DNA of 64,000 nt, from NCBI GenBank assembly GCA_905178155.1, contig CAJINV010000011.1:643982-707981 (forward strand), written 5' to 3'. The stretch is from Amoebophrya sp. A120 (taxonomy: Eukaryota > Protista > Dinoflagellata). The notes under the pieces were generated by a model. The model did not search any database and was not told where the DNA came from. It saw only the letters and a program-made list of their open reading frames with translations. Positions 2,845-32,959 of the stretch are shown in pieces. A program made the translations under genes and the position numbers. Position 1 is the first letter of the stretch, and every line of letters begins with the position of its first letter.

Positions 2845-3253
2845 TGCAAATTAATTTGGATGTCTGTCTCATTATAAGTATCAGGTTGTAGCACATACCC
2901 AAACATCATCTACCTTGGCCGCGCATGGGGAACCTGTGGCGGTCTCGCTCTTCCTTGTTGCTAGTCAAAAAGGTCGCCGTGTTCTTATGAGCGAGGAAAG
3001 AGTCGCTTTTTTTTCGATTTTGATGCAGATGACAAGTGTCTTCGACCTGCTTGTTGAGAACAAAACCAGATCAGCTACGTTCTTGCGATCTCTTTTTTTT
3101 CCGGCTGAAAAAAGCGCAAGGTCTTTCGGTTTTGAAACCGATCAGCGAAGTGGGACGTTGGAATTTGATGATCCTAGGATCCAACGAACAAATCGATCAT
3201 GGTTCTTCATTCCAGCACACTCAGCAAATCCTGAGCTCGACATTTAGATTACC

Positions 3254-6200
3254 ATGAAGCCGGGAGGACTCTTTACCCGCGTTGCCAGCGTTCAGTTTTC
3301 CTGCTCCAAATCTACTTCATCGGCGCAGCACATATCTTCGGCGCCATTTCTTATGGAAGAGATTGGCAACAGCGTGAGCAGTCGGGGCGCCCGGGGCGCC
3401 CGCCCCCCGCCGACCTGGCGAAAGACCCGCAAGACCGACCGCTGTGCACCAGCTGCGGGGACGAGTGGTTCTCGTGCTGGATCAATAGTCCTCGAGCTGC
3501 CTAGGACCCCCGCAGTTCCGCATTTACTTCTCCGTGCCGGAAGCGCCGGACGTCGAGAGCGGGGTAACAGAAGCGGAAGGAGCACCTCCTTCGCACTCAT
3601 TTCGTCGACGCCGCTACAACCCGTAGGGCCCCATGCTGCACCGGGACCCCACTACGCTTTCCACACGAGTAGGACGACCCGCCGAACCTTTGCGTCCCGC
3701 AGCACAAAAAACCGGGTGAAAAATAAGATGAGTTTGCTGCGCAACCCGAACCTGTTCAGCAACGCACGGGAGGTGAAGATCGCCGTCGTGGGGCGGGCGA
3801 ATGTGGGTAAGTCAACGCTCTTCAACCGCTTGGTTTCCGGCTCGGCGAAGAGCGCCAAGGCCATCGTGCACAACCGCGCGGGCACCACCCGGGACCGGTT
3901 GGAGGGGACCGGCGTGTTCGGCTCTCTGATCGTGCACGCCGTGGACACGGGGGGCGTGGAAGATTTGCGCACCACCGTGAAGAGCAACATCCTCGCGCAG
4001 ATGCGGGCCCAGGCGCGGGCGGCCCTTCTGGAGGCGGAGGTGATCCTCTTCGTGGTGGATGCGAAAGCGGGGATCACGCCACTGGACGTGCAGGCAGCCC
4101 AGGACCTGATCCACAACGACGCGGAGCTGTTGCCGCTCGTGAAGAACTTGGACTCGCACTTGAAAAAGATGCAGCAAGGAACAGCTACAGGGAGGACCAC
4201 TACTGCTGCTCTGGGTGGCGAAGGCGATACAGCTGCTGCGGCAAGGGAGAATGCCTCCTGTGCAGCTCACGCTGCGTCTGCAGGCGACGAGGAGTGCATC
4301 TTCGGAAGCGGTATTGACGCCTCTACAACAGGAAGTAGGAGGAATAAACAGCGCAATGCTGCTACTGCAACTGCTGCTGCTGACAAAAATCTTCGAGGCA
4401 GAAGTGGTACTAAAAGCGCCGTCGACTCGAGACACGCCAGCGGTGAGAACCCGGCTTCCGGGAGCAGGCCACTGAAGAGTTTGATTCTGGTCGCCAACAA
4501 GGCAGACGGCGGCTATGTTGGGGACTGGGCTGCGGACTGCTACGACCTGAACCTGGGCGATCCGGTGGCGATTTCCGCCATGCACAACCAGGGGCTGGAC
4601 CACCTGTACGACCGAATCACGCTATATCCAGGAAAAAACACCCATCCCCATCCAATTTGTAATGCAAAACATGCATCAAGAGCAGCGTTTGTCATTTCAA
4701 AAATGGATGGGGATGGATATTTTTTCCTGGATACGCTAGAATTGGACTACCACCCCAAGGGGGATGATGAAGAGGACGAGGTACATGATTCAACTAGAAA
4801 ATATGTAAAATTCTATATGACTTTTGTGTAGTACAACAAGTACAATCGTGGTGTCCCTTGCTGTGCAGTGTGCTGCTGGTGCAGTCTGTCTGCATAGTAC
4901 CTTCGGAGCTTCTGCGAGTTTATTTCTGTCATCAACTTCATGTCCGTCAACACTTTCCGAAATAATATGTCAGGACGAGGACTTGCACGGGAGCTGCTCG
5001 CGCCGCGAAGTAGACGAGGACCGGGCACAACTTCTGAGTGGTTTTGAGGGCAGCAGCAGCAGCGCGTCGGGTTACCATCCGCAGGACGAGGTGCAGGAGA
5101 AGCGGAAATTCTACGAAGAGATCAGGGAGAACGAGGAAATTCTTATCCTGCGCAAAAGTATCGTACTCAGAGTAATTGCGGTCATGCATTAGAAACAAGG
5201 TCCGAGCACGGGGACAGAGTCCCCGTGCGGCGACCTTCCGGCATTTGTCTGGGACGAGTTCGGCGGCTGTGGTGGCACGGGGCAGGCAGGCCCCTGCAGC
5301 TCGGTGTCTCTGTGTGTCCTGCATCCATTCCCTGATCCGCGACAGACCTGCGGACGGAGCTCCTCTGACTGCTTGCCCACACTGGGTCCGTTAGCCTACC
5401 ACGAACAAAGAGAAAAGAAAAGAAGAAGCTGGCCCATAGCGCCGGCGATGTAGCTGGCCCCCAGGTCATGGCGCGGGGACCGAGTCCCCGCGCTGACCTA
5501 GGGCTTTTGCCCCTGGGCCGTGCGGCTAGTTCCCGGGAAGCGCCCACAGCTGGCCCCTAGGTCATCACGCGCGGACCGAGTCCCCACGCTCACCCAGGGC
5601 CTTTGCCCCCGGGCCATGCGGTTAGTTTCCGGGAAGCGCCCAAAGCAGCTGGCCCCTAGGTCATGACGCGGGGACCGAGTCCCCGCGCTGACCTAGGGCC
5701 TTTGCCCCTGGGCCGTGTGGTTAGTTTCCGCCCGGGAACGAAGCGCCCGAAGCTGGCCCCTAGGTCATGACGCGGGGACCGAGTCCCCGCGCTGACCTAG
5801 GGCTTTTGCCNNNNNNNNNNNNNNNNNNNNNNNNNNNNNNNNNNNNNNNNNNNNNNNNNNNNNNNNNNNNNNNNNNNNNNNNNNNNNNNNNNNNNNNNNN
5901 NNNNNNNNNNNNNNNNNNNNNNNNNNNNNNNNNNNNNNNNNNNNNNNNNNNNNNNNNNNNNNNNNNNNNNNNNNNNNNNNNNNNNNNNNNNNNNNNNNNN
6001 NNNNNNNNNNNNNNNNNNNNNNNNNNNNNNNNNNNNNNNNNNNNNNNNNNNNNNNNNNNNNNNNNNNNNNNNNNNNNNNNNNNNNNNNNNNNNNNNNNNN
6101 NNNNNNNNNNNNNNNNNNNNNNNNNNNNNNNNNNNNNNNNNNNNNNNNNNNNNNNNNNNNNNNNNNNNNNTGTCCGGGGTGTGTTCGGGGTGTGGCCTGC

Positions 6201-9200
6201 AAATTACAAATCACGATGCTACGGACCCACTTTGCATACCCCAGAACACACCCAAAAGCTTCAAAAGTTCTGGTTTGCTGCAGTTTAAATAGTAATGTCT
6301 TGACTAAGGCAAAACCGCATTACAAATTTCCTTTCTAATGCTGAGCAAATTTGTAACGCGATTTCTACTAGTACGATCACGATGCTTTTGCATTTCATAA
6401 TTCTGCGTCGCTGGCAACGCGAAGAGGAGGCCGAGGAACAACGAGGCGTGATTATCGACGAAGGTGGAGCCGATAAGTATTCGGATGTTGATTTTTTACC
6501 ACTCCCGGCGTTCGTCGAGGACGATCTTTTGCGCGAGGAGGGGGATGAAAATATAAACGACAAACACGTCCAGGATTTCCAACACGACGACGACTTCGAC
6601 CTAAGCCACCCAGCCGACGTATCAAATGCAGAAATGTCTGGGTCTGGAGCAAAGCAACTTGTCATGCTAAATCTGAATCATGTAAAAATCAGTGTTGCGT
6701 GATTACCAAAAGCTGTCCACTTTTGACCTAATCGAGAGGCAGTTTCTCATGCAGGACAGGCATGATAGAACTCTCACGGATGAATCTGTCATGCTATGTC
6801 CTACATACCAGACCTCATGGGCCATGGAAAGCCTGCGTAACAAGTCTGGCACTCTTTGCAGTTGATACGACGAGGACAACCGCGACCAGCGACCCCCGAT
6901 CATCGAGTTCAGAGAGGACGGGCACGAAGATTATCACACAGAAAAAAGCCTGCAGGGCATATTTGTAATGCAAAAATAAACACACAGAAAAAAAATGGGC
7001 GGCCTCATAGCATGCGACTTAGGATATGCAACGCAAATTTTTTTGTCAATTTATTTTTGCATTACAAATATGACCTGCCAGCTTTTTTCTGTGTGACAAA
7101 GATTTTGTATTGCCGAAGGAAGATGACTTAGAGGTACCAATCGAAGACGACGTAGAGCAGCAGTTCGAGCAGGAGGAAGAAGATAATATCGAGCCGGATC
7201 CGGACGAAGAGTCTTTCTTTGAAAGTCGACGTATTAAAACGACAAGGAGACCACAGGGTAAGAGCAATAAACTGGTAGGAGCCAAGAACATCGAAAGTAG
7301 CCCGCCGGACGAGGAAAACCGCGCTAACATCCTCACAAGCAGCAGCAGCAGCAGTAGCAGTCTTGGTGCTGCTAGTACCTCCAGCTCCACCTCACCAGGA
7401 GGAAAAAGCTCGTCTAGATCAACGAAGCCAGATGAAATTACCACTACGACCACTTCTTCCGTGGACGATCTGTCTGAGGAGGAGCTGTTGGAGCTTGATG
7501 CACAGTGGAAGTACCCCAACCTCACGCAGGAGCAGCGGAAATCCTTGCTGTACTTCGCCCGCCACCCGGGCTGCTCGTCCCTCTCGCTGGACCAGGATCC
7601 GGTGCTGAAGCACCTGGTATCCCAGTCCGTCTACGAGAAGGCCGCGCTGAGTGGCGGCGTGGACGCGCTGCGCAAACTCGTGCCCGGCGCGCGCGACGAG
7701 CAGCGCAAGTGGGACGCGGCGGCGCACCTGCGGGACCAGATCATGGGCCAGAAGCGGGAGGCGGACTTGGTCGAACGGGCGCTGAAAATCGCGGTCGTGG
7801 GAGTGCCCAACACCGGGAAGTCCAGTCTGATCAACGCGCTGCTGGGAAAACAGCGGGTGATCACCCACTTTGAAGCGGGGACCACGATCGATTCGGTCAC
7901 CTGCGAGTGGGTGTATCGGGGGCGAAAAATGAAATTGATCGACACCTGCGGTGTCTACCGGCGGGGCCGCGAGATCCAGGACCCGGAAACCGGGAAGTCC
8001 ATGATCGAACCCGGTATGGGAACGGTGAAAGCGATCCGGCGAGCGAACCTCGTGATTCTCTGCATCGATGCCACCATGTACAGCACCAATCCGCATTGCA
8101 CGCCGAGCTCCCGGTATCCGAGAAAAGAAAGACGATTGTACGGTGTAACGTTTTTTGGGGCAACAGCATGACAAATCTTCTGTCTAGCATGAGCGGATAG
8201 CACGTCGAACCTGTCATGCGCGGATAGCACTTCAAAACCACCACGCGCTTGAGTGGACGCTGTAATCCATGTCCAGCATGACAGACGCAATCATCTTGCG
8301 TCTTGCGCATCACAAAGTTACACTAACAATGTTTCTTTCCTGTATACCCGGGAAATCAAGATTGCGAAGTTGATCACGCGGACGCAGTATGCTTTGCAAA
8401 TATCGATCTCAGTCTGGATTTGTGATGCGAAAGTTGAAGGAGTGATGCATGGCTAGTAATGACGACTTTTTTTGTCATGCTGTGAAACTCAGTTTGTCAT
8501 GCAAAACACGCTAGAACAAACGAAACGACGCGCAATTATACCACCCGAAAAATTTGTGATGCGTGGATGCCGTACAGAGCAACGCTCTGTCATGCAAGAC
8601 TCAGCAACACAAAGCCGTTGCGTCTTTCCAGAGGACCGTAGACATATTTGCAGTGGATACGCAGGAGCGGCCGCTGATTGTCTGCGTGAACAAGTGGGAC
8701 CTGGTATCCTATGTAAAAACGTCCCCACCCCATAGTTGTCATGCAGATTTGCATCTACAGAAAATCTGTAATGCGCATTCCCATGAGAAAAATCAAATTT
8801 GAATTTCTAGTCGTGCTCTGAGATTTGTAATGCTGCAAACAGGATAAGAGGGCGTGTTTGTGATGCGGCTGTCCTTGCTAAACTGCACTACCCTACAGAC
8901 GGAAACGTGTCATGCATAACTCACAAAACTTGGAGACTTGTGTTGCACACTTACCAACTGGACTACGGGGTGGGGACGTTTTTACTCAGGATGCCTGGTA
9001 AAGGAGGGGCCGGAAAAGCGGAAATACCAGGAGGAGATCTTGCAACGGCTGAACACGGGGGTGCACGAGTGCCTGGGGGACGTGCCGACGGTGTTCTGCT
9101 CCGCGAAATTTCAGCAAAATCTCGCCGTCTTGATGGACAAAGCGCTCGTGTTGGAGAAGCGGTCCTCTGCGCGGATCGCCACCGCGAAATTAAATCAGTG

Positions 9201-11755: not shown

Positions 11756-13300
11756 GCACGCCGGCGCCAGCGCTCTCGTCTTCCACTGCGGTTTTGGACT
11801 ATGCGTTTCATCTTTTTGAGTTTTGTGTAAGCATACGTACTAATATTAATTCGGAATTATGATCTCCTTGTAGATCTGTCTTTCAATGTAGCAGATCATA
11901 TAAGTAACTACTTACCGCTTTCAGAAAAACTCGCGTCTTGTTGCGTTTGATATTAAAATTTCGCGAACTTACCAAAATTGTTTAAACCCCGCTTGCTTGT
12001 ACCATCGTTTAGTTCGCATTGCTACGGAATTGATTCAAAATTCCCTCTGGGATTGTGCTTTTCAATGTATTCGGAATTTTCCGTGAATGCAATCAATGAT
12101 GTGAGGTGCGTTTCTCGTTTCTTTCTGTTGACCATAGCAGTACTAGTCAGCACCCACAGGAGGTATGAGCTATCTTCTGGAGACGAACGTGATGACGTTT
12201 AGCGCACTGACATTTCTCTTGCTGTCGGCTAGTAGCCATAAAAAAGTACATGTGCAGCTCCGTAAAGGAGGGTCGACCACCTTCAGACACAAGAGAGATA
12301 CTTAATGCGGCGTCTGATATTTTAATTTTTTTAGAGACCGACCGCACATAGTTTCATAGAGCGCCGTTCGCCTTGTATCACGAAGTGTATTAAGTAGTGA
12401 AAGACAGTGAAAAATAGTATCTCGGTTTCATCCTGCTTCAACTCTTAGAGCTCGACCTCCTGAAGAGGAGGTCGAGTTATAGAGAACCTCTATCGGAGAA
12501 CACGATACGCCTATCTGCTCCTGCACGCTATGGCGATTGTGACGGCCGGACGAGGACGTGGGGAGAGTAAAAATGCGTTTATGGACCCAGAAAAGCATTT
12601 GTAGACAGGTTCTTGAGCAGGTTGTGGCTACTGGAGATGTAGTGTTCGCTTAGGCGCCATGTGGCGCCCTGTCACAAACGACAGAATGATCGTTGGCCTC
12701 GAAGCTCCTTTGCAAAAACTCGGTCCTAAATTTGAGCGAACGCATAGCTCGGTGTTGTCTCGGTCATGGTAAATTTCTGTGAGAAGAAGCAAGAAGCTGG
12801 ATCCATCCGTGAAATAATTATTCGGGTAATTTCGGACGAACACCAACACAGCATGTCAAGAAAACAAAGCAACTGTACTAGGTATGCAACAAAATCATGC
12901 CGAAGATCGCAAATCATGGTCATAAAAGAAAATGAATTTTCGTGAAACAAGCCTCAGTTCACCTCTAGAGATCCCCCAAAACGAACTGCGCGTTTCTCGT
13001 GAAGACGCTGCATGAGCAGGTACTTAAATTGCAGAGATCAACAACACAACTACTGCACTGCGGCTTGCTTTTCTCTACTTTTCAATACACGTAGCTTCGA
13101 ACAAATCGAAAACACAGCCACAGTGAGTTGACTCTGACTATACTCAATATCACGCTTTTGATTCATTTCTACTGATAACCACGAAGATTTTTCCCCCCGA
13201 TTGTACTAATCCTCTCCTGCGACTTTTTATACGATTTTTTTCTCGATTCCACCACGACATCAATCATTCATCGGAACTACAGCCCCTAGTACCCACAACC

Positions 13301-14314
13301 ATGGCAACATCAACATCTTCCTTTCCCAGCACCACGTCGTCGCCCCCCACGGCGGCCCAGCAGTGGGGCAAGAACGACGAGAGTTCATCACTTCTGAAAG
13401 CCACCGTGAACCTGGACGGCGCCGACCCATCGCTCTTCGACGGCCAAACGAGCGTTGACGACGTGGAATTCGCGGCCCAGTTTGCGCAGTTGGAACTGGC
13501 CAAGAAGGATGAAAATACTATCACGGGGGCGGCCGCGAAGAACAGTACCGCAAGTGGTAGTAACCCGTTCAGCCGCGCGGGGCTTGCGGTGCCCGCAATG
13601 GACGGGTTTGACTTCCAGTTTGACGACGAAGAGGAGCCGGAGAACATGATGCAAAAGTACGTCGAGTCGGCGCTGCAGGCAACGGGGTTGGACTTAATGC
13701 CCGCCAGTGAAGACGAAGGCGACGACGATAACATGGTTGTGCCATTGAATCTTGACCAACAACTGCACACGTCGGGGACCTTGACCTCCAGCAGCAGCGG
13801 CCCCGCGGGTGGTCAAATGAGCACTCTTGACGCGAAGAAGCTCGAGGCCAACGAAAAATTGATGGACGCGGGGCGGAAGAACACGGAGCACCTGCCGCAA
13901 CTGGTCGATACGGCGAAGGTGCCGACGCCCAAAGCGGGGAAGGTGTTGTCGACTTTCGACAACTTGATCGTGGTGCAGGCCCCGCTGGAGGCCCGGGCGC
14001 TGGACTTGAAGTCGATCTTGTGCCTCCCGACCGGGGACGTGGTGGGCATGGTGGTGGACGTGTTTGGCAACATCCACCAGCCGCACTACCTGGTGTTCCC
14101 CACCAACGCCGATTTGGACAAGGAACACTACGCCGTCGGGGTGGAGCTCTGCTACGTGAAGGACCAGTCCGCGTACGCGATGGATTTCGCCCCGGATGTG
14201 TACGAGCTGCACGGGAAAAGGCCGACGGAGGGGCAGGAGGATAGCGACGTGGAAAACGCAGAAATCGTAGGGGACGAAAGCGACGACGAAATTCATCTTG
14301 CGGCACCGGCGTAA
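13301..14314 (+). CDS. NAF1: H/ACA RNP assembly factor NAF1 (Gar1/Naf1 domain)
   Basis: GKVLSTFDNLIVVQA...ALDLKSILCL...VGMVVDVFGNIHQPHYLV followed by acidic SD..N.E....SDDE, as in NAF1. Confidence 0.8.
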   Translation: MATSTSSFPSTTSSPPTAAQQWGKNDESSSLLKATVNLDGADPSLFDGQTSVDDVEFAAQFAQLELAKKDENTITGAAAKNSTASGSNPFSRAGLAVPAMDGFDFQFDDEEEPENMMQKYVESALQATGLDLMPASEDEGDDDNMVVPLNLDQQLHTSGTLTSSSSGPAGGQMSTLDAKKLEANEKLMDAGRKNTEHLPQLVDTAKVPTPKAGKVLSTFDNLIVVQAPLEARALDLKSILCLPTGDVVGMVVDVFGNIHQPHYLVFPTNADLDKEHYAVGVELCYVKDQSAYAMDFAPDVYELHGKRPTEGQEDSDVENAEIVGDESDDEIHLAAPA

Positions 14315-15014
14315 GAGAAGAAGTTGGGGACCACGGAATGATTTGGTGGAATTTTTATGCGAGAAAATAAAAGTGACTGTGACTGTGTGTTGCTGTAGTT
14401 GCATATACACAGCATGATGAAGAAAGGGCAAGTTTGATTGCCGCGATAAAGAGGTTAGTAAAAACGACTATACACGATCATGATGAACAAGAGCGCGATT
14501 TAGAAAGACATGCAACAAAAGCAAAAGAAAACGAGCTTGAAGAGCTGGCTGCTGTTCTTTCTGAGTAGGGAAGTCGTCTGCATTTTTTAGGGGTGTTCAT
14601 CTTCGTGGCTGTGATTTCGTCTTTCTTCAAGCACTACTTCAAAATCACAAATACAACTGTGAGCCTGAATTGAATCCAACCCATAGAAGTATCTATAGGC
14701 CTGTGCTCGTCCTCTCTCACGAGCGGTCGTAGCCAAATAATCTGTTGTTTGCGAAACTCACAAAACTATTTTTCGTACCCCCTGAATGACGTGTGCGAGT
14801 GTGAGGCCCACACCCAAGTCCGAAAAAACCTAGCCTCGTAACAGCCGCACCCTTATGGTATAGATCAACTGTTCGTCATAGAGGATCGGCGTTCAGCTGC
14901 TCTCGGGCTGGAGGAGGGAGTAGCACGCAGCAGTCCGCTAAAGGGCACACTGCCAACATCATCATCATATAATCTCGAACTCGTCGTCTACTACAGAACT
15001 TCCAAAATAAAAAC

Positions 15015-16756
15015 ATGAGCAGTTCTTTCCTGAACTTGAGGCCTTGCACGACACTGCTGGCAACGTTCTTGCTTCTCCCGTTTTGTTTACATCTCCTCCC
15101 TGTCACCACCGCTGGTCGCCCATCTCGGGACGGGGATGCTGTGACTGCGCCGCCCGATAACGATTGGGAGTACTACTGGGGGCGAGGAGCGGGTCCAACT
15201 CTTCTGGAAAACAAGCGCGGGAATAACATGGTGGTTCCGCCCCCGCCCGGAGCTGTACCCGCCACGAAGCTGCAGGTTAAAAACGTCGGACATCAGGGAA
15301 CTACAAGCAAAGTCGTGCTGCAGAAGGATCTCTCACAAGAACTGCTGCCGCGGGGTACCGATTCTACCCCAAGTGAGGTTCTTGTGGGTGGTGGTGGTGC
15401 ACAGCCATCGCAGAATCCGGACGAAAACGACATGGCAGTGAAGGTGATGCGAAATTTCTGGAAAAACCAGCAGCCGGGCGGCCTGCGGGATGTCATGGGG
15501 CAGAATGGCATTGCGACAGCGAATCAACAAGAATCTGCGGAGGTCGCCGTGGAGCATCAAGAGGAGAAAGGGGAAACGGAAATATTGAATAAACCTTCTT
15601 CATCTACTAGTTCTAGCGAAGACGAATTTTTACCCGTAGTGCTCGGCACCCCCGCGCGGAGCCTGTCTTCCTTTGCGGGAACTACAGCCTCCATGGAGGA
15701 CGAGGGCCAGCAACCCGACCGGCTTTCCTACGAGCCGAGTAGGGGGCGACTCACGGCCTCGCAAAACGTATGGATTGCAAATATGTCTGGGTCTGGAAGA
15801 ATGCAACTTGTGATGCTATTTCTGGAAGCTACAAAAATCTGTATTGCATGAGCAGCAAGAGGCGTCCAGTTTTTGCTCCGCGGAGCGGGCACTTGTCATG
15901 CTGGATAGGCATCAATAGTCCCGCAAAAAATCTGTCATGCTAGGTCCTCCATTACAGGCATCGTAGCTCATGCGAAATATGCATGACAAACCTCGAAATC
16001 TTCCAGCCCCAGACATTTTTGCATTTGATAAAACGCCGCCCGGGACAAGACGGCAAAGGAGGTTTTGAACAACCTGTGGCAGCAGCCGGGCTTTCAGCGG
16101 GCTATCAAGTGTAAAAATGTCTGGATCTGGAAGATTCTGAGGCTTGTCATGCATGTTTTGAATTGGCCATTATATCTGTGATGCATGCCCTAGCATCACA
16201 GATTTTGCGCGGGCTTCGCGATGCCTATTCCGCATGACAAATGCCCCCTCCGCGTATCAAAAATTACACTCCCTTTGCTGCTCATGCAATACAGATTTTT
16301 TTGGAATCCAAATTTAGCATCACAAGTTGCATTCTTCCAGACCCAGACATTTTTACATTTGACACGGGCGCGGATGCAGCACATGATTGCCGAGGCGGTG
16401 AAAAAATCGAACGAACCCGGGGGGTTTCCTATCAAAATGAAAAATCCCCTCTCCCCATATCAAAAACGAAATTTGTGATGCTGTATTTGAGTACACAAAT
16501 CGACTTGTAATGCTAGAAGGCCAAGAGACGCAGCTGTGGCCTCGTTTGCAGGCAATTTGTCACGCTGTTTCCAACTTCCAGCTGCCCCCTGTCATGCTGA
16601 AGATGCACGGCTTTCCCACGCCAACCAGCACTACAGTCCGCATCTTTTCCCTTCTAGCATGACAAAGCTGATTTGTGACCACAAATCTGCATCACAAATT
16701 TCTAGTTTGAGTATGGGGTGGGGGGATTTTTCATTTTGATATTCCCGCTGCAGTGA
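15015..16756 (+). CDS. hypothetical secreted protein, 4 predicted exons
   Basis: N-terminal hydrophobic signal (TLLATFLLLPFCLHLLP). Exons 15015-15768, 16036-16102, 16370-16429 and 16747-16756 join in frame after removal of three TIR elements. The last junction has an imperfect DR, so the C-terminus is uncertain. Confidence 0.65.
15769..16030. mobile_element. introner-like element, family A (262 bp)
   Basis: tatggattgcaaatatgtctgggtctggaaga ... cttccagccccagacatttttgcatttgata; DR AAACG. Confidence 0.9.
16103..16364. mobile_element. introner-like element, family A (262 bp), inverted relative to 15769-16030
   Basis: tatcaagtgtaaaaatgtctggatctggaaga ... tcttccagacccagacatttttacatttgaca; DR CGGGC. 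Confidence 0.9.
16430..16741. mobile_element. introner-like element
   Basis: tatcaaaatgaaaaatcccctctccccata ... tatggggtggggggatttttcattttgata; DR TTTCC/TTCCC (1 mismatch). Confidence 0.85.
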
Positions 16757-17646
16757 GGAAGGGATAAGCCGATTCTTTTGGAAGTAAGTAGTTGGTTTAT
16801 TTCGTTTTGGACACGGTCTGTTGATAGCGGATGACGTTAATACATGGATACAATTTACAAAAGGATATTATGCAGCAAACTAGAAGAGAAAAACTTGCCA
16901 CAACTAGTTTGTTTTTTTGAGGACTATGTGGGAGGAATTGCACTACAGTATGTGGGAGGCTTTTACCGCTCACCTTGAGAAGCGCACACGTCATTCTTTT
17001 TTTGAGGACCGATTTTGCTGATTTGTCGCCATCATCCTGCAGCTCGGTGTAGTGTACGTCGTCCCACAGTACTTCTCCGGGCTGGCCGTGTCATTTAATA
17101 TTGACGCGCACTCATCTTCATGGTTCGCTCTCGCTGGTTCCTTACTTTCATGGATGAATATATCGTCGCGGTTCTTTCGGACTAGTATTGATGCGTGCAG
17201 AAAGCTGGAGGTGGTCTAGTACAATGTATTCGGGCGAAAGCAGCAGATCAGCAAGTCGCATGCGACATACTGATCTTCCCCTTTGAAGATCAAGATCTAC
17301 GAATACGACGGACCGGTGCACGATCTGACACTTTTTTTTCCGATCATTTGAGTGCGAGCGCAGATCGTGCATGCGGTCCTGTGTGATGACCCTGAAGACC
17401 CTCCTGCGGTGTGCTTGTCGATCCTTCGTCGATTAGCTTTTAGCTTGTACTATTGATTCTACTGCCTCGCTTTTTGACGACCAGCGACAATTTCTCAATC
17501 TTCCTGAGAGCGACTTTTGTACAGTCTTGTGTTTATTATATTTTTATCACATTTTTGTGCTTATACATAGTTCTACCTCTACGAAGAGGATCCTGACGTT
17601 CTTTACTCCGAATGAAATTTAGAAATTGAAAAAGCGTAGCGAAACC

Positions 17647-20600
17647 ATGCCAGCAGCCGCGAGCACGACGACTCCGAGTAGGAGCGTGGCCATCGCCGCG
17701 CGGGTGAAGCGGCGGCAGGAGCAAACAGCCGCGAAGAAAGCTTCTTCCAGTAGCAAGAGCACCTGCAGCACTTCTGCGTCGACATCGCCGTCCCCATGCT
17801 CAACAACGTCTCCACCACCGACAAGCGCCGCGTCATCATCGTCCTCCAACAGTAGAGGGCCGGCTTTGAAGAAGAGCGCAGATTATCCACCGAAAAATAT
17901 TGATGATTCGGCCGCGGCAAATAAAAAGAACAGCAAGTTGTGCAAGTTTGAAAAGCAGCTCCGCGCCCGGCCGGTGGAGATGGTGCGAAAATTATTGAAG
18001 AAACGGGCTGGGTACACCGAGCGGATTCAGGGACAGGTGGTTCTGAGCGGCAAGGAGGGGGAGCAGCAGCCGTCGGGGTTGTATGTCTTGGAGGCAGGGT
18101 CATATGCGTCGTATGCCTCTGCATCTGCATCTGTTCAGCAGGAGATGGACGGCGCCCAGCCCTTCTCTTCCTGCTCATCAGCGAGTGGTAGTGCTGGCAG
18201 TACTTGTACCACACAGTCCACCTCCCAGGATGTGCTGGTGCCCTCCTGCTCGTCGCGAAAGAAGTCCTTCGACACCTACCTCCCGATGCACCTGCTGTTT
18301 CCCTGGCTGATGCTGCTCCAGGATCCGAATTTGCCCGGGCCGAAACGGTTTAAATTGGAGCAGAAGGCGTACAAATCCATTCCGCTGTACTGCAACAAGG
18401 TTCTGTTCCAAGCGGATCCGGTTTCGGGGCGATTACTGGAATGCGAAAAGGCGGTCCGGTTTCTGCTGAATCCGGAACAACAACAATTGGGGAAAAATGG
18501 TTGTGACATGGCATTGGAGGACCAAGAGGCGCTGCTGGAACTGCTAAACTATGCTGGAAGCAGTAGTTGTAGCAGCGCAGAAGTAGGCCCTCGTCGTGAA
18601 AAGTCAACAGGGAAGCACAAGCAGAAGTCATCTTCAAGGGTACTAGTAGATGATCAAAATAAACACGTCTTTACTACTAGCGACGAGGAAAGAACAAGAC
18701 CAAAGGACGGAGTGTGTTTACCGCGGAAGCGAAGAAAAATCGCGGAGCAGCTACAAGAGGGAAAGGTGGAACCAACAGCAGGAGCGGACAAGAAGGGTAT
18801 TGGTGTTCTGGGCGCGAGCTGCAAAATGAAAAATGCCACTTGCAGTACACGGCGACCACAGAGTGAAGTCTCCGTGCCGCTCCGAGAGCAATACCCGCTG
18901 CCGGTGTGGCCGCCGCCAAAAAATCCGTCCTCGTCCACGAGTTATGTTTCCACCGCTAGTACTAGTAGTTCAAGTTCTACATCTACTTCTACAGCAAGAG
19001 AAATAAATGCCCAAAACACGAAGTTGATCATCCGCTGGTGCCAGCCGGAAGCTGAGCCAGGCGACTTAATTCTGTACACGGGGTTTCACGGAAACATCTC
19101 CACGAAATTCGGCGTCACCTGTGTCCAGCACGTCGACTACATTCCAGAACAGTTGCTGAGGAAGTACTTGCGAGAGGAAGCAGGTGCGGGCTGTACTTCT
19201 TCGCAGAAGGCCGAGGAAGATCATGATGAAGATGAACCGCAGTCGGTTGTTAATAATCCTCCCAGAACTTCTTCGGCGGATATGGATGTTGAAACTGCGT
19301 GTTTCAAAACCCTGATCACGTCCTACTGGGAAAAGTTCGAAACCTCCATCGTGGACGTGGGCAGCGGGAGCACGCGCAGCAGCACCGAGGAGAAGAAACT
19401 GTACGCGTTTGACGCGTATAAGAAGAGGAAAACAATAAAGAGCCTTCCACCACCAGCAGCGGCAGCGAGACCAAAGACCGAGAGGACGAAAGGGAGAAAG
19501 GACCACTTCCCTGTCGGAGGACGAGCAAGTCTTCTCGCCCCGAACATGAACAAGGCGTCATCTTCGCACCTGGCAGCTGCATCTTCAGAGTCAGACTTGC
19601 CGGTGCTCTCCTCGACCGTGCGCGGCGCGATACTGGGGTCAACATCAGAAGTTGTATCGAAGGGTTTATTTGCTGGCATTACGGGTACTAGTTCATCTTC
19701 CAGGACTGAGTCGCAGCAACATGATCATTCTCTCAAGTTCGACAGGATGTTTCAAGAGCTCAACGACCAAGGTTATTTGGTCGTGAAGAAGGCAGAGCTA
19801 ATGAGGTTGCAGGATGAAGAGATTTCCCAGAGAAGTAGTCCTAGTGAGCTGCAGATGAAAGCGACACCAGCTGCACCCGAACTACAGGTGGACTACGCAG
19901 AAACGGTAGAACGGGCGATCCACGAAACAGACCGGATTTTCAACTTTGTTTTGCAGTATCACAACGTCCCACTGATGATAGAAGCCGGAGATGATGGACA
20001 GGAAGGCGGGGGCGATGAGGATCCTAGTGCTGAAGTAGATGGTGCACCAGGAACCTGTTCGAAGAAGATGAAAAGTGGAACAAAAACTACATCAGAGCTA
20101 GACAAAATTATCAATCCACCTCGCAAATTCTTGTACCGTCCGCTTTTACCGCAAAAGGTGACGGACAACGACGAGAAAATTTTTCAGGCCATGCTCGACC
20201 AAAACGTCTTTTGCGATAAGGGACATCAATACCACGACCACAAGCACGACCAAAAGCTGCGACGAGACGGAACAAGAACAACATCAGCATTAAACCCCCT
20301 GCGTAAGAAGAAGAACAGCACTCATGTCCCCCCTTTATTATCCCTGACCAACCCCCTGGACGAGCGATGGCTCTACCTGCGCAGCGAGGAGGACCGGGAA
20401 TACCTCTGTGGCGACCGAAACGTGATGTACGCGAAACGGAACTCTGGTGCGCAGTTCGGAAACGCGATTTCTGCGGTGAGTCACGGGATGGGGAGAATGG
20501 CCTGCGTTTACCGGAACGCGGTTTTGTTGGAGTTGCAGGCGAGCGCGGGTGTAAAAGCGGTGTTCGAGCAGATGTACCAGCGGATGATGGCGATGGAGAA

Positions 20601-21451: not shown

Positions 21452-24176
21452 ATGGCATCGGCGCCCGTGGGAACTACGAGCAGCAGCTCATCTTCGAGCT
21501 CACGCAGCAAGAGTTTTCCCCTGCTGGTTCCATCGCGCACGGAGGCCAGCGTGAGTACGCTGATGCTTTTCTGGGAACAACCATCAGGTAGTCATGATGC
21601 CGGTAAAAATGGCACTTCTTCTGCTGCCATTCCAGAAAGTCTGGAACGTGTGGAACTTTTAAAACCATGTAAAACATCAAGTCTGGACGTGGACGAGGAA
21701 GCGATGGCAACATCAGCAGCTGCAACCACTGCTGGAGAGAACAACAACCCAGAGCAGAAAGCCACTACGGAAGTAGATGAATCCGCAGTCCATCCGGTAA
21801 CACTTTTGAAGATGAGAGAGGCCACGAGCACGACTTCGGTGGTGAAGAGCGTTTCAGTAACTTCCGCCATGAGGAACGCGGGGTACATTGGGTTCTACCA
21901 TCTTATTGCAGACGAAGACTACGAGGTCAGGTTCTACCCTTCGAGTGTTGATGGTGAGGACCTTGTAGTTGATGCAGCAACATCCTCTTCCTCCCGAAGT
22001 GGTCCTCCACCTGCAAAAAATCATTACACTTCCCTCCACCTCCGGACCCAAGCCCACTGTGAAGACCGGCCGCTCAAAAACGGGTATTTGCCCGGGAAGG
22101 TCGTGTCGCAGTGGTTGTCTCTGTTCGGCAGTCAAATTACGTACGGGACTTACGTTGGCTCGGAACACGCGTCTTTCAGCCAGTTCAAGAGACGGCGAGT
22201 CGAGGAACAAGCAGTGACGCGGGTGGAGCAGCAGGTTTCTGCCCAGATGAACCCTAGTTCCAGAGGAGCCACGGGTAGTTGCGGTGGTAACAGTTCCTCG
22301 TCTTTTTCTCCTACCTCCTGGGGCAGGTACTTGCAAGAAGCGTACTTCGCGCACAACAACAACACGAGCAGTAGCAGTAGCAGAATTTCACAGCTGGAAG
22401 ACAAAGCCACCCCAGCTGCTGAGGAAATCGAAAAGGAAAACGACACCATCAACATCGTGGAAAATAACGACCCTTCGGACAGCGATGTGCCCTACTTCTC
22501 CTCCGGGTCGGAGTACTACACCGCCTTGTCTTCCTCGGGGGAGGAGCGGGAGAACGAACCAAAAAGGCACGCAACCGATCGGGAGGGAAAACGTAGTGAC
22601 GATCCAACAGGACAAGAAGCAACTGGCATTACGGTCGAAAACCACCTCAAAAACGGAGGTACCACAGCAGCCGTCGCGAGAAGTGTCTCACCTCCTGTCG
22701 TTGCCTCTGGCGAGTCTGGCGTTCAAGGTAGTTCTAGCTCCACTTGTTCTCCCACCAGCACATCAACCAGCAACGCCACTGTCTTGCGACAAGCGACCAA
22801 ACCTGGCGGACACTTAGTAGACTGGATCTACGAGGTGAAGGGCGATTTTCTCTGGCTGGTCTTTCTGGACTCCGACCCAGATCTCGTTCTCGAGCTCTAC
22901 GCACTGGCCTGTTTCACGCTGCCGACGTTTTTGCCCCCGCCCACGTGCTTCGTGATCAACCCGGAACAACGGTTCTGTATTGATTTATTGCAACGACCAA
23001 ATATCAAAGCAGACCTTTCTAGTGCAGCAGCCAATGAGTCAGCATTGGCACTGTGGGGAAAGTGCAAGATGGTCCGGCGGTACGCGAAAGACCTGAGAAT
23101 CACGGTGAACAAACAGTTTTCCGCCTCCTTGAAAGCCTTGCAAAAGTACCACGCGGGCAAGGTCGTGGAAACAGACCAAAAGGTATCTACTTCCGGGAAA
23201 ACCGAAAACGAAAGTGAAGGAAGTGGAGGTGGAAGTAGTAGTGGGACCACTAGTACAACCGCAAGTAGTACTACAAATGCAGGATCAACACCGCCCACGT
23301 GGCTTAATGACGAGCTGATGGATCTGCTGACGAAGTTTCATCACGACGAACAAGAAAGAAAAAGAACCCCTAATACAACTGGTCCTCCTGCCCCGGACGA
23401 TCTCGTGGAGCAGTGTGTTTTTGAGTTTTGGGAAAACGACGAGCTCGTGGCACTGTGTGCGGGTTTTGCCGTCGGGAAAGCGTACCACGACTACAGCATG
23501 GCCACGCTGTATGGAAGCGTCAGAATCGAAATCGTCAAAGTTGAAATAGTTTTTGATGCATAAAATGCAACGCAAAAATTGCCTCTATTGCAGAGGACGC
23601 AAGGGATGCAGATTGTAAGCCTGTTGAGGGGTAGGAATTGAGCTGCTAAAGTAGCATGACAAAAGGCGTCTTCCTTACCCAAACAGCATTAGTTCTACAC
23701 AAATTTGTCATGCGCAACCTGAAAACTAGGCGCCAACTGGTATCCCTTTTATGCATCACAAATTATTTCAACTTTGAGGATTTCGATTCTGACACTCCCA
23801 TACGCTGAAGAGGGACAAGCGGTCCTTGGGCGCGATTGCCAGCAAGGTGGTCGGGCACTTACTGCAGAAAACGGGGTTTGAAATTTGGTACTGGGGCTGC
23901 AAAATTGGCTACATGAACGACTACGCCAAGTACGGGGGCCGCGACTTCGGACGAGCGGAGTTTAAGAAGCGGTGGTTGGAAGCGTCTTCGAAGTCGTTTT
24001 CGACGTATAGTAGTAGTAGTAGTGCTGCCCCCGGTGTTGAGGAGTCTTCCTGTTCCTCTCATCTTTCATCTCGCGTACAGGAAGAGAGTTGCAGTTCGCT
24101 AGACGCCGTGATGCGAGTCTTGAAGGCCGGGCAGGGGTTGGTGGCTCTGAAAGAGGAGGATTCTGGGATGAAGTAG
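21452..24176 (+). CDS. leucyl/phenylalanyl-tRNA--protein transferase-like (Aat/ATEL-like) protein with long N-terminal extension, 2 exons
   Basis: LELYALACF..., LRITVNKQF, FEFWENDELVALCAGFAVGKAYHDYSMATL; after removal of 23510-23807 it continues KRDKRSLGAIASKVVGHLLQKTGFEIWYWGCKIGYMNDY..GG..FGRAEF..RW. This is the motif order of L/F-transferase-family proteins. Confidence 0.65.
23510..23802. mobile_element. introner-like element
   Basis: tatggaagcgtcagaatcgaaatcgtcaaagttgaaata ... tatttcaactttgaggatttcgattctgacactcccata; DR CGCTG. Confidence 0.9.
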
Positions 24177-24799
24177 GATCGCGATTTGAAAGTTTTCGAC
24201 AAAAAATAAAAACGCACAAAACACGAACAGAAATAATCACATGATAGTACGCAGCTACGTAGTTGAAACGTCATCGAGGTGGATTTCGCAGAGGCGCCGT
24301 ATGATGGCCCTTCGTGCGCTTACTTTCTTGATTCCAAATTCGTTGCAGTGGCGTTGCAGACATGAATCACTCGTCGTAAAAATTGTCGATCTGAAATTTT
24401 TTCATGTATCTGTTTTGTTGAATCGTGCGAATCGCTTTCATGGACGTGTGTCGTTGTCTCGTTCATGTTCGGTTCGTCTTCGTTCTTCTTCGTGGAGATG
24501 ACAACACTTCGTTCTCGTTCAGACCGTGCCAGAACCGTGGCTCAGCTCCGTTCGTTCGTTCGTTCGTTCGTCCGTCGTGATGGTTTTTTTTGCTGCGTCC
24601 GCAGATAAGTTGGTACTAGCTTGTGATTTTGTTTGACTCATTGGCTTATCGTTTTCATCTCCGCAGGTACTTCACAAGGAAAGGTTGACCAAATACTTTG
24701 TCGTGGAGCTCCTACCCGTAATTATGTATCTAAATTGATTTCAAAGCGATCAGTATCTCCCAGTAAAAAAGACCTGCTTGTTGATTTTCGTCCACCAAA

Positions 24800-26830
24800 A
24801 TGTTGCAGTTTTTCCGTGTGGCGTTCATTTCTCTATCGACGAGGCTTTTCTTCGGCACGCAACTCTCGACACCCGTCTCCGCGGTCGGCTTGGACCTTCG
24901 TCGTCAGCGTCTGCGGTTAGAGGCGGAGCGCAGGGAGCGAGCGGAAAGGGAAAAGAAAGGAGGTGTGTCCCCGAGCAGTTATGTGGAGAAGGCAAACCGC
25001 TCTTTGCTACGCAAGGGACGGGAGAACAAAATGATCCTCGCGAGTAAGCGTGCGGAGCAGGAGGAACAAAAAGTGCAGACAGGAACGGCAGCCGACGGAT
25101 CCGGCACCGGGAAAAAGGACAAGGACGAAGGGGAAAACAAGACGAACGTGCTGCTCATCGAGGGCTTCGTCATTATCGCTGTCTTCACCATCGCCTGCAT
25201 CGTCATTTACGTCGTGTGTTGCCGGAAGGGCGCGCAGGACCCGAAGCCCAACAAGGGCAAGGGGCAAGCGCTCTTCCCACCGGACGCGACGCGCGCCAAG
25301 CGGAAGCAGGTGGTGGAACAGATGGAGCGGGAAAACCAACTGAACGCACTCATCGACACGCGGAACCAGCTGGCGGCCGGTGGACAGCAGCGCCCGTTGT
25401 TGCTGCAACGGGGCCCAAGTGTGAAGGTGGAGCACCCGCCCTCCGCGATGGTGAATGACTTTCTCAAGGACGAGCCCAAGTCGGGGGCCGGGGTGAATAC
25501 TTCTACCGTCGGCACGACGGACCCACGAAATTCCGTTACCATCCCGGCCAGCGCGAACGAGCCGCCTTCGAGCGGCGGCGGCTTGTTTGATTCCTTGCTA
25601 AGTGGGAAGCCCAAGCCCGCGAAGAAGCGGAAAACGGAAGACGGAGCGGCTGTCACGACAGAAGCGGTCGTCGCCGACGCAATCGGGTCGGTCGGAAACG
25701 TGGCGCGCGTCTCCGGTGTCTCTACCGCAACCTTCGCGAGCAGTGCGGGTGCGGCTGCTGCGGGGACTGCTGCTGCTGGTACAACGTCTACCGGCCGTGT
25801 GTCCGCGCAATCTGCCACGGGATCTGCAACGGCTGCTGGCCGGGCGTCCGCGCAATCAGGCGGCTCGGGTACTGCAGGAGCACAACTACCGCGCGGCCCG
25901 TCCATGACGGTGAAGCAGGTTGATGTGGTGCAGCAGATTGGAGCGTCGTCGCAAATGGCCAGTCAGCCGCGCGTGTCTAATTCCGTGGCGGGCATTGCCG
26001 TCCGCGCAAGCCAGCAGGCCGCCAGCACTACCACCGGGCCGTTTCCCGGCACCTCCTACGCGAACCTGTCCTACAGCTCCATCTATGCATTGCAAAAGTA
26101 TCGTACTCGTATAAATGCATTACAAATTTTCTCAGCATGAGAAATAAAATTTGTCATGCGGATGCACCTTAGGAAAAAAATTTGTAATGCATGACTGCAA
26201 TTACAACGAGTGCGATACTTTTGCACAGGATACCATCAAGATGCAGGGGATCGGGGCCACCGCAGCGCACGCGCTGCAACCCAGCGCGTATCCTGAGTAA
26301 AAACGTACCCACCCCAGAGTTGTCATGCAAATGCGCAATGACAGGAACATTTGTAATGCGCAGCTCCATGAGAGGCATTATCAGTCGTGTTTTGGAATTT
26401 GTAATGCTGTAAAAAGGATGAGACACTGGCTTTCTCGTGCGGCTTCCCTTGCCAGCCAGCACTACACTGCAGAGAGAAGCTTGTCATGCACAGCTCCCAA
26501 AACTTGGAGATTTGTGTTGCTAGATTCCCAACTTAACTATGGGGTGGAGACGTTTTGGCTTAGGATAGCGCGCAGTCGCAGTTCAGCAGCCCGGGAACTT
26601 CGGTTGTTGGTGTTGCCAGCGGCGGCCCGCAGTTGCTGAACTTGGGGGCGAGTCAGCGGGCGTCGCAGCAGGCGTCGTCGCAGCAAGGAACCGGTGGTAT
26701 TGCGGCGAGTCAGCGGGGGTCGCAGCAAGGAGTCGGTCCTGCGGCGAGTCAGCGAGCGTCGCAACAGGCGTCGCAGCCAGGAGTCGGTCCTGTGGCGAGC
26801 AAGCGGGCGTCCAAAAAGAGCGTGCAGTAA
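24800..26830 (+). CDS. hypothetical single-pass membrane protein, Ala/Ser/Gln-rich cytoplasmic tail, 3 exons
   Basis: Hydrophobic N-terminus; TM segment VLLIEGFVIIAVFTIACIVIYVVCC followed by RK. Exons 24800-26083, 26238-26288 and 26573-26830 are in frame; ASQRASQQ repeats at the C-terminus. Confidence 0.75.
26084..26232. mobile_element. introner-like element, family C (149 bp)
   Basis: tatgcattgcaaaagtatcgtactcgt ... acgagtgcgatacttttgcacaggata; DR CCATC. Confidence 0.9.
26289..26567. mobile_element. introner-like element, family B
   Basis: tatcctgagtaaaaacgtacccacccc ... ggggtggagacgttttggcttaggata; DR GCGCG. Confidence 0.9.
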
Positions 26831-30723: not shown

Positions 30724-31606
30724 ATGTTTTTCTTCAACTGGAAAGGCGCCATGAAGGGCGGCGGCTACGGCCCGGACCGCGGCGGACCGCGCGGCATGAT
30801 GGGGAGCCACCGCGGCGGCTACCACAACGGCCCGTACGGTATGGATTCCGGGGACCGCTGGGGCTCCGGCCCGACCTGCCCGCCCGCGGACGTGGCCATC
30901 CCGGGGACCGACCGTCACTGCTACACCTGCGCGCGCACCTTTGACTACCGCAGAACGCACTGCGACTCGTGCCGAGCGCCGTTGTCAGTCGTGGACTCGA
31001 AGCAGAACAACTGGGAATGCCGTATTTGATGTGACATAATTTTTGCAATAAAATTTGTGATGCATAAAACTGATGATGATGTTCATTATTTGTGATGCAT
31101 AAAGGACTGTTCTCATGCTGTGCAAAAAAACACGACCCCGAATCAAATTACAGCCTGCGGTCAGCCGAACTGGTTGTGGCGCAAGACGTGCCGGCGGTGC
31201 TTGAAGCCCAGAGCACAGGGTGAGGAGAGGCTCGACCGTCCGCCAGCGCCGGCCGAGGTCATCGTGATCAAGAAGGAAGAGTTGCAACAGGTCGCGAGGT
31301 ATGGATTGCAAAAGCAGCGCACTGCTCGTACTGGTTATACGATATTTATTTTGCATAGCAGATTGTTCCATCTCGTGCCTTTTACTTACTACCCAAAACT
31401 GCATGTGACTTTTGTTTGTCATGCTAGTTTACGCTAGAGGCGTTGCTTTTGCAATGCATACCTTGAAGCTGGACGAGCGGCCGATCTGGAATATGGAGAT
31501 GAAATTGCACAAACCTGAGGCTTGGGAACGCAACCATCTTAAACGCATTTTAGAAATCCTGGAATGCTTCTGTTTTCGGCATGAATTCACTCCGGACAAC
31601 AAATGA
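30724..31606 (+). CDS. RanBP2-type zinc-finger / RGG protein, at least 3 exons
   Basis: RGG-rich N-terminus; DRHCYTC..RRTHCDSC; after intron 31022-31153, NWECPCGQPNWLWRKTCRRC. A second insertion lies at 31300-31460, and the 3' end is uncertain. Confidence 0.7.
31022..31153 (+). other. GT-AG intron with residual terminal inverted repeat
   Basis: tgcc|GTATTTGAT...ATCAAATTACAG|cctgc restores W-E-C-P-C of the zinc finger; internal tgtgatgc motifs as in the introners. Confidence 0.75.
31300..31460. mobile_element. introner-like element (family C-related) without matching direct repeat
   Basis: TIR tatggattgcaaaagcagcgc / gcgttgcttttgcaatgcata; flanks CGAGG vs CCTTG. Confidence 0.75.
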
Positions 31607-32790: not shown

Positions 32791-32959
32791 TATGTAGTGC
32801 AAAAATCGTATCAAAACAAGACCTCTTGTATTATGTGCATGAGCAGCTGCAGCACGATATGTCTTTGTCATGCGATAGCGACTAAGGTCATGCGAAGAAG
32901 GATATGCAAGGTGCAATACAAAGGTCGTGACCATGATGACGCGATTTTTCCTTTCCATA
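32791..32959. mobile_element. degenerate introner-like element inside a possible GT-AG intron (32790-32963); host gene unclear
   Basis: tatgtagtgcaaaaatcg ... cgatttttcctttccata with internal tgtcatgc; context gggag|GTATGT...ccatacTAG|c. Confidence 0.5.

Follow-up and report, generated by a model that had tools for sequence, protein, structure and literature searches.

The locus raises the question of whether one kind of element can be removed from a transcript in either orientation and, if so, what marks its ends. In the window, the whole 64,000-nucleotide stretch of DNA that was analysed, two copies of one element family lie in opposite orientations inside a single gene, which also carries a third element of another family. 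The original prediction was that removal of such elements is independent of orientation and that its signal must be symmetric, such as a stem formed by the terminal inverted repeats (TIRs). The features of this gene are as follows.

15015–16756, plus strand: host gene, 296 amino acid residues; exons at approximately 15015–15768, 16036–16102, 16370–16429 and 16747–16756, the cut register inside each duplication not being fixed.
15764–15768 (plus strand, left) and 16031–16035 (right): target duplication AAACG, flanking copy 1.
15769–16030, plus strand (forward to the host): family A introner copy 1, 262 bp, ends TAT..ATA.
16098–16102 (plus strand, left) and 16365–16369 (right): target duplication CGGGC, flanking copy 2.
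16103–16364, minus strand (reverse to the host): family A introner copy 2, 262 bp, ends TAT..ACA.
16430–16741, no strand assigned: third introner of the same gene, from another family, 312 bp; duplication TTTCC/TTCCC, matching at 4 of 5 positions.

Aligned without gaps as reverse complements, the two 262-bp copies were identical at 208 of 262 positions. When the TIRs were left out, the interior of the copy at 15769 scored 214 against that of the copy at 16103 in reverse and 34 in forward orientation, which bore out the predicted inverted pair. Both copies possessed TIRs of approximately 27 bp beginning with TAT. Across its borders copy 1 read AAACG/TAT..ATA/AAACG and copy 2 read CGGGC/TAT..ACA/CGGGC, each with a perfect 5-bp target duplication. 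A scan of the window for inverted ends directly flanked by 5-bp direct repeats, with complementarity at 15 or more of 20 end bases, found 17 cases, compared with 0 in each of five shuffles. All three elements of the host gene contained stops in all six frames.

Exon 1 of the host gene (15015–15767) matched one protein, P0004 of Amoebophrya sp. A120 (296 amino acid residues), with 100% identity. P0004 is exactly the translation of the window once all three elements, each together with 5 nt, are cut out, and every cut register inside the duplications yields it. Removal of the element plus 2 or plus 8 nt failed to give P0004, and retention of any single element broke the identity at residue 251, 274 or 294. 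Given that P0004 matched only with both family A copies and the third element removed, the two copies lie in one gene, as had been predicted. The exon between them (16036–16102) was present in P0004. P0004 is an annotation, not raw data; the passages of PMC7789003 on A120 gene models describe them as derived from transcript alignments with non-canonical borders permitted. With one element retained, the frames were 278, 299 and 309 residues long, compared with 296. Because retention of copy 2 still gives a frame, and a longer one, of 299 residues, frame logic was uninformative for the host gene and would not by itself have produced P0004. The N-terminus of the host protein was hydrophobic as judged by eye, and no Pfam match was found for exon 1.

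Four of 11 runs were compared with the window, and two of them, the raw-read runs X9 and X10, had no coverage of the host gene. Read evidence for the host gene came from X1, taken as RNA by guess and present as contigs, and from X6, which behaved like DNA in that its depth was flat, ranging from 42 to 60 outside repeats. Over 16009–16131, which covers the end of copy 1, the exon and the start of copy 2, the depth of an X6 contig was 41.5, compared with 42–46 in the flanks. Thus, the DNA keeps the elements. X1 was RNA-like: its depth was 0 over 18288–19615 and 24264–25591, and one of its contigs ended at 14550, where raw reads of X10 bore poly(A). X1 contig 5 (1173 nt, depth 59) matched 14939–15762 with 0 differences over 824 bases and then departed from the genome. 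If copy 1 alone were removed, the leftmost predicted joint would be 15762; for three skips involving two copies the predictions are 15761, 15768 and 15768. Removal of copy 1 was therefore seen at its left border in X1, which is probably RNA. The last 349 nt of this contig were not listed, and its length of 1173 nt fits the loss of all three elements, with a predicted end at 16962, the start of a short repeat. For copy 2, of which no junction across 16103–16364 is displayed in the read tables, removal is inferred. All X1 depth carried other letters at seven places in copy 2 and at three in the third element, and no X1 contig had the letters of this locus at the seven interior places of copy 2. 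X6 also lacked the locus's own letters at 15918–15919, so that empty cells are weak evidence; the X6 rows show the remainder for copy 2. Loss of a further element was seen elsewhere in the window.

23510–23802, no strand assigned: introner; X1 contig 7 joins 23503 to 23802, the element and one duplication copy being gone.

Elements in both orientations also lay within long frames of the window, where two element borders were adjusted by hand for frame restoration.

40806–53386, plus strand: open frame of 3629 codons, which opens once six elements, each plus 5 nt, are removed.
61964–62623 (61964–62269 and 62321–62623), no strand assigned: second inverted pair of one family, inside a restored plus-strand frame of 1612 codons.

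The 3629-codon frame spans the family A copies at 41085 and 47086 (reverse) and those at 48437 and 49815 (forward). Beyond the window, at least 130 loci from one public assembly were found by the family A end pattern, and two overlapping loci were dropped. That assembly and the window had no unique sequence in common and their family copies were up to 93% alike, which does not show strain identity. The loci listed contained 314 elements, 261 with duplications matching at 5 of 5 positions and 53 at 4 of 5, compared with none in 186,268 shuffled bases. Together with 26 elements of the window, this gave 340 copies, 189 of which had an assigned host strand, three of the window strands being set by hand. 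In the loci listed plus the window, family A comprised 120 copies, and of the 62 that could be called, 36 lay forward and 26 in reverse (p = 0.25). The forward to reverse ratios of four further large families in the same set were 12:16, 12:10, 16:8 and 7:3, so that all five of the largest families occurred in both orientations. Strand calls made at the level of the locus agreed with the junction calls in 161 instances, disagreed in 2 and extended the set to 275 copies; under these calls, family A of the loci listed plus the window leaned forward, 54:35 (p = 0.056). Close pairs of one family, within 500 nt of each other, were inverted in 9 and direct in 9 instances in the loci listed plus the window, and inverted pairs were therefore not depleted. 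Orientation is thus close to neutral for A120 introners, and P0004, X1, the restored frames and the family counts together upheld the predicted independence of removal from orientation. The gaps between neighbouring elements of the loci listed were almost never shorter than 27 nt and piled up from approximately 38 nt upward.

Inversion had likewise been predicted for family C between 5144 and 26084, and was confirmed by scores of 74 in reverse and 32 in forward orientation.

5144–6399, plus strand: family C copy with an insert of approximately 1.1 kb, tandem repeats and an assembly gap of 360 N; duplication ATTCT.
26084–26232, minus strand relative to the copy at 5144: family C copy, 149 bp; duplication CCATC.

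The copy at 5144 is not a plain family C copy, as it extends to 6399 with its insert. The two copies sit in different genes, both of which are on the plus strand by reading frame. The family C evidence comprises reading frames and sequence, and RNA evidence was seen for neither copy. The insert consists of 96–104-nt tandem palindromic repeats and the 360-N gap, and the host frame at 5144–6399 still opens when the element plus 5 nt is removed.

The missing elements of the cDNA might also reflect no splicing in the cell at all, if reverse transcriptase switched from one direct repeat to the other at the base of the hairpin or if the elements were lost from, or absent in, the DNA of the strain that supplied the RNA. 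Template switching by reverse transcriptase at a hairpin with short direct repeats is a known cDNA artefact, and this is the layout of the elements. The RNA evidence in this study is all based on cDNA, and raw RNA reads of X9 at 16312–16362 and 23747–23792 hold element ends joined to the sequence of other loci, which are unspliced or retained copies elsewhere. However, the frames of 3629, 1612 and 1424 codons in the window exist only after removal, and the three host-gene elements would bring stops into every frame. Among the 314 elements of the loci listed, a coding-like frame opened in 119 when 5 extra bases were removed, compared with 52 for 4 and 43 for 3 extra bases. Moreover, the X6 depth across the copies indicates that DNA retains them, and X1 contig 5 did not differ from the window over its matched 824 bases. 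An origin of the missing elements outside splicing is hence regarded as very unlikely.

Both copies are members of the A120 introner class of Farhat et al. (2021), a class that has already been described. In the passages of that paper that were searched (PMC7789003), A120 introners possess TIRs of TAT, seven variable bases and at least three As, belong to many families and have non-canonical borders, with direct repeats of 3–5 nt at their junctions, or 5 bp in the legend of Fig. S19. The organism is shared, given the 100% identity of exon 1 to P0004. The TAT-N7-AAA ends were found, with slight deviations at the left end of copy 1 and the right end of copy 2, and the direct repeats are AAACG and CGGGC. 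In a scan blind to duplications, 233 of 301 elements of the loci listed plus the window carried a duplication matching at 5 of 5 positions. Membership of a repeated family is shown by the 120 family A copies among the 340 elements of the loci listed plus the window. Removal at non-canonical borders is shown by the gene model and the X1 break at copy 1, and indirectly for copy 2. Being short and non-coding, with TIRs, a duplication of fixed length and many copies, these elements also have the features of MITEs, or non-autonomous TIR transposons. A120 family 38 was described as Ginger-like and integrase-bearing in the part of PMC12130899 that was available.

Introners in both orientations are not new in general, because they have been reported for algae: algal introners insert in both orientations (Huff et al., 2016, as summarised in the available part of PMC10228655), and the method in the corresponding part of PMC9860276 allowed for introner copies of opposite orientation. 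Similar to the elements of this study, the introners of Micromonas and Aureococcus are, in these partial sources, non-autonomous DNA transposons that are spliced without change to the mRNA and occur in both orientations. Different from A120 copies, however, their splice sites are canonical, being either carried by the element or co-opted. For A120, the searched passages of PMC7789003 contained no scoring of host orientation, covariation or end polarity, and orientation was not addressed in the part of PMC12621601 that was available. In the literature searched, no study was found that analysed Amoebophrya introners for orientation, covariation or end polarity, although subscription papers, unseen figures and datasets may hold such an analysis. 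Thus, both the elements and the fact that they are introns have been published, and their neutrality of orientation and polar tolerance of end changes, described below, are apparently unreported and provide useful constraints.

If A120 introners were spliced by the ordinary spliceosomal route, with GT and AG co-opted from the duplication as in algal introners, canonical borders should be available to them. The G before TAT does supply a GT donor in copy 1, and four copies of the window that lack a duplication each show both a G preceding TAT and an AG within 10 nt past their end.

31300–31460, 32791–32959, 33011–33189 and 50530–50842: elements with decayed duplications, G before TAT and an AG up to 10 nt beyond the end, which could be GT-AG introns.

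In no register, however, is an AG acceptor available to either family A copy of the host gene. Across the 156 copies with perfect duplications in the loci listed plus the window, GT/GC-AG borders were possible in 10, compared with 8.2 expected and with 6 on the antisense strand. A switch to canonical borders in copies whose duplications had decayed was rejected, as G plus AG was not enriched among them in the loci listed plus the window (13/29 vs 93/233), and loss of the duplication is thus not tied to canonical dinucleotides. GT-AG is not used, and co-option of canonical sites is considered highly improbable.

[quoted passage not shown] The signal must therefore lie in the symmetric ends. That part of the original prediction stood, and a terminal stem is indeed predicted for both copies (z = −4.46 and −6.75), but symmetry of the ends does not imply that a stem is all that is read. 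A check for a branch-point motif at a fixed distance from the 3' end, which accompanied the prediction, was ill-posed, because the TIRs place fixed adenosines at the same 3' distances in both orientations; in family A these are at −3, −8, −16, −18, −20, −24 and −26.

In one reading, the paired TIRs alone join the 5-nt duplications, and an activity that reads structure, as proposed for euglenids, ignores polar sequence. Long terminal stems are predicted in both copies, and the inner TIR sequence varies between families with its pairing kept. In the loci listed plus the window, the inner positions 14–28 covaried within copies, with 3672 paired compared with 3542 (0 of 1000 permutations), and did so in family A alone (p = 0.002). 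This covariation is compatible with a stem, with subfamily structure or with a need of the transposase at the level of DNA. In the passages of PMC7789003 on splicing, moreover, U1 snRNA was undetected and is apparently lacking in A120, and the exon ends were proposed to be brought together by hairpins. Different from that proposal, however, the outer repeat showed no signature of an RNA stem in this study. Positions 4–10, which are beside the cut, did not covary in 292 copies of the loci listed plus the window (1338 paired vs 1358 permuted), and G-U was not favoured over A-C at positions 1–25 of 189 copies from the same set (168 vs 192). The sense strand was more stable than the antisense strand in just 38 of 62 family A copies of the loci listed plus the window, and the first two terminal pairs of copy 2 were unpaired in the predicted fold (0.03 and 0.0). 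A predicted joint fold of the two copies had 221 pairs and −353 kcal/mol, compared with −214 kcal/mol for the copies folded apart. This duplex between the copies is favoured over their separate stems, yet inverted pairs at close range show no depletion and P0004 contains the middle exon; recognition is therefore likely to be local or co-transcriptional.

Tolerance of changes at the ends was also polar. In 275 copies of the loci listed plus the window, variants at +1, +2 and +3 of the 5' end as defined by the host numbered 1, 2 and 10, and those at −1, −2 and −3 of the 3' end numbered 11, 7 and 1. The 5' TA was thus changed 3 times and its 3' mirror 18 times (p = 0.0015), and the 3' A at −3 was changed once and its 5' mirror 10 times (p = 0.012), in a comparison that was noticed post hoc, involves 32 variant positions and covers copies that may share ancestry. 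The polarity was 11 vs 3 in the added 86 copies alone (p = 0.057), and in a strict set of 199 copies the counts were 0, 0 and 5 at the 5' end and 6, 2 and 1 at the 3' end, both from the loci listed plus the window. Strand-biased mutation does not explain this polarity, because A to G and T to C changes both occurred on the sense strand. Mismatches in the duplication were evenly spread over N1–N5 (7, 7, 5, 4 and 9) and left the cut register unfixed. With end variants tolerated in a polar way and outer pairs free of covariation, recognition of an A120 introner by its stem alone is possible but less likely.

The likeness to the stem-based nonconventional introns of euglenids, which had been part of the original prediction, is an analogy only. 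In the available parts of PMC12501133 and PMC11282704, euglenid introns share with the A120 elements non-canonical borders, terminal pairing (predicted in A120), duplication-like repeats and a suspected MITE origin. Their code, N3-CDG ... CH'G-N5-6 followed by a purine, is polar and, as tested in Euglena, requires sequence as well as pairing (PMC12501133, seen in part), which also argues against a signal made of pairing alone. No conserved CAG/CTG corresponding to their CDG/CH'G motif was found in A120 elements, the shared motif of which is TAT/ATA plus AAA/TTT; at positions 11–13, AAA/TTT was, with TAT/ATA, all that was common to six families in the loci listed plus the window. Euglenid nonconventional introns leave the transcript as full-length circles and not as lariats. 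Euglenids moreover belong to another supergroup, and the appropriate comparison is the A120 introner class itself.

We therefore favour, with a probability of roughly 0.58, the reading that the two copies are transposons of the A120 introner class, opposed in one gene and removed in the gene model with 5 bp each, that they are likely spliced in both orientations, and that the end signal of their TIRs is likely read directionally. They would have been inserted by a cut-and-paste transposase, with duplication of 5 bp and little preference for orientation. The inverted ends would then show the RNA one terminal signal in either direction, and a splicing activity may recognise the shared end motif, with UA at +1/+2 of the element, A at −3 and AAA/UUU at 11–13. 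A local terminal stem may help to draw the ends together during transcription. Removal of the element with one copy of the duplication would restore the mRNA as it was before insertion, in any cut register. More tentatively, the splice code may be independent of U1 and directional on symmetric ends, with UA first, an invariant A at −3 of the far end and exons registered by the 5-nt duplication, and may act locally and co-transcriptionally to leave no scar in either orientation, tight inverted pairs included. The shared end motif could also serve the transposase alone.

Most introns of A120 are removed with no use of GT-AG and, apparently, of U1, and the locus constrains how this is done. Tight inverted pairs should form a rival duplex of 220 bp, yet they are not avoided. 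Such constraints amount to predictions that separate a machine that reads a stem from one that reads sequence.

Several other features of the window were noted. At 40806–64000, plus-strand frames of 3629, 1424 and at least 1612 codons follow one another after removal of elements, with gaps at 53387–53488 and 58029–58069, suggesting one gene of more than 6600 codons. No Pfam match was found for this giant gene, and no longer homologue was found for its exon at 53886–58028. At 3248–4828 and 4821–8168, neighbouring plus-strand frames each had an MMR_HSR1 GTPase match. A Gar1/Naf1 gene lies at 13127–14555, and in raw X10 reads poly(A) followed positions 14531 and 14555 of the plus strand; the closest named relative of its protein, with 34% identity, was in Amoebophrya A25. 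The segment at 40330–40565 is a degenerate relative of the element at 60746, to which it is 86% identical over 234 nt; its right end has decayed, and it is flanked by a near-direct repeat of 13–14 nt, not of 5 bp. Finally, short repeats without TIRs lie on either side of the host gene, at approximately 14770–14970 and 16930–17005; contigs of DNA and of RNA alike break at them, and the second is bracketed by a 13-nt direct repeat.
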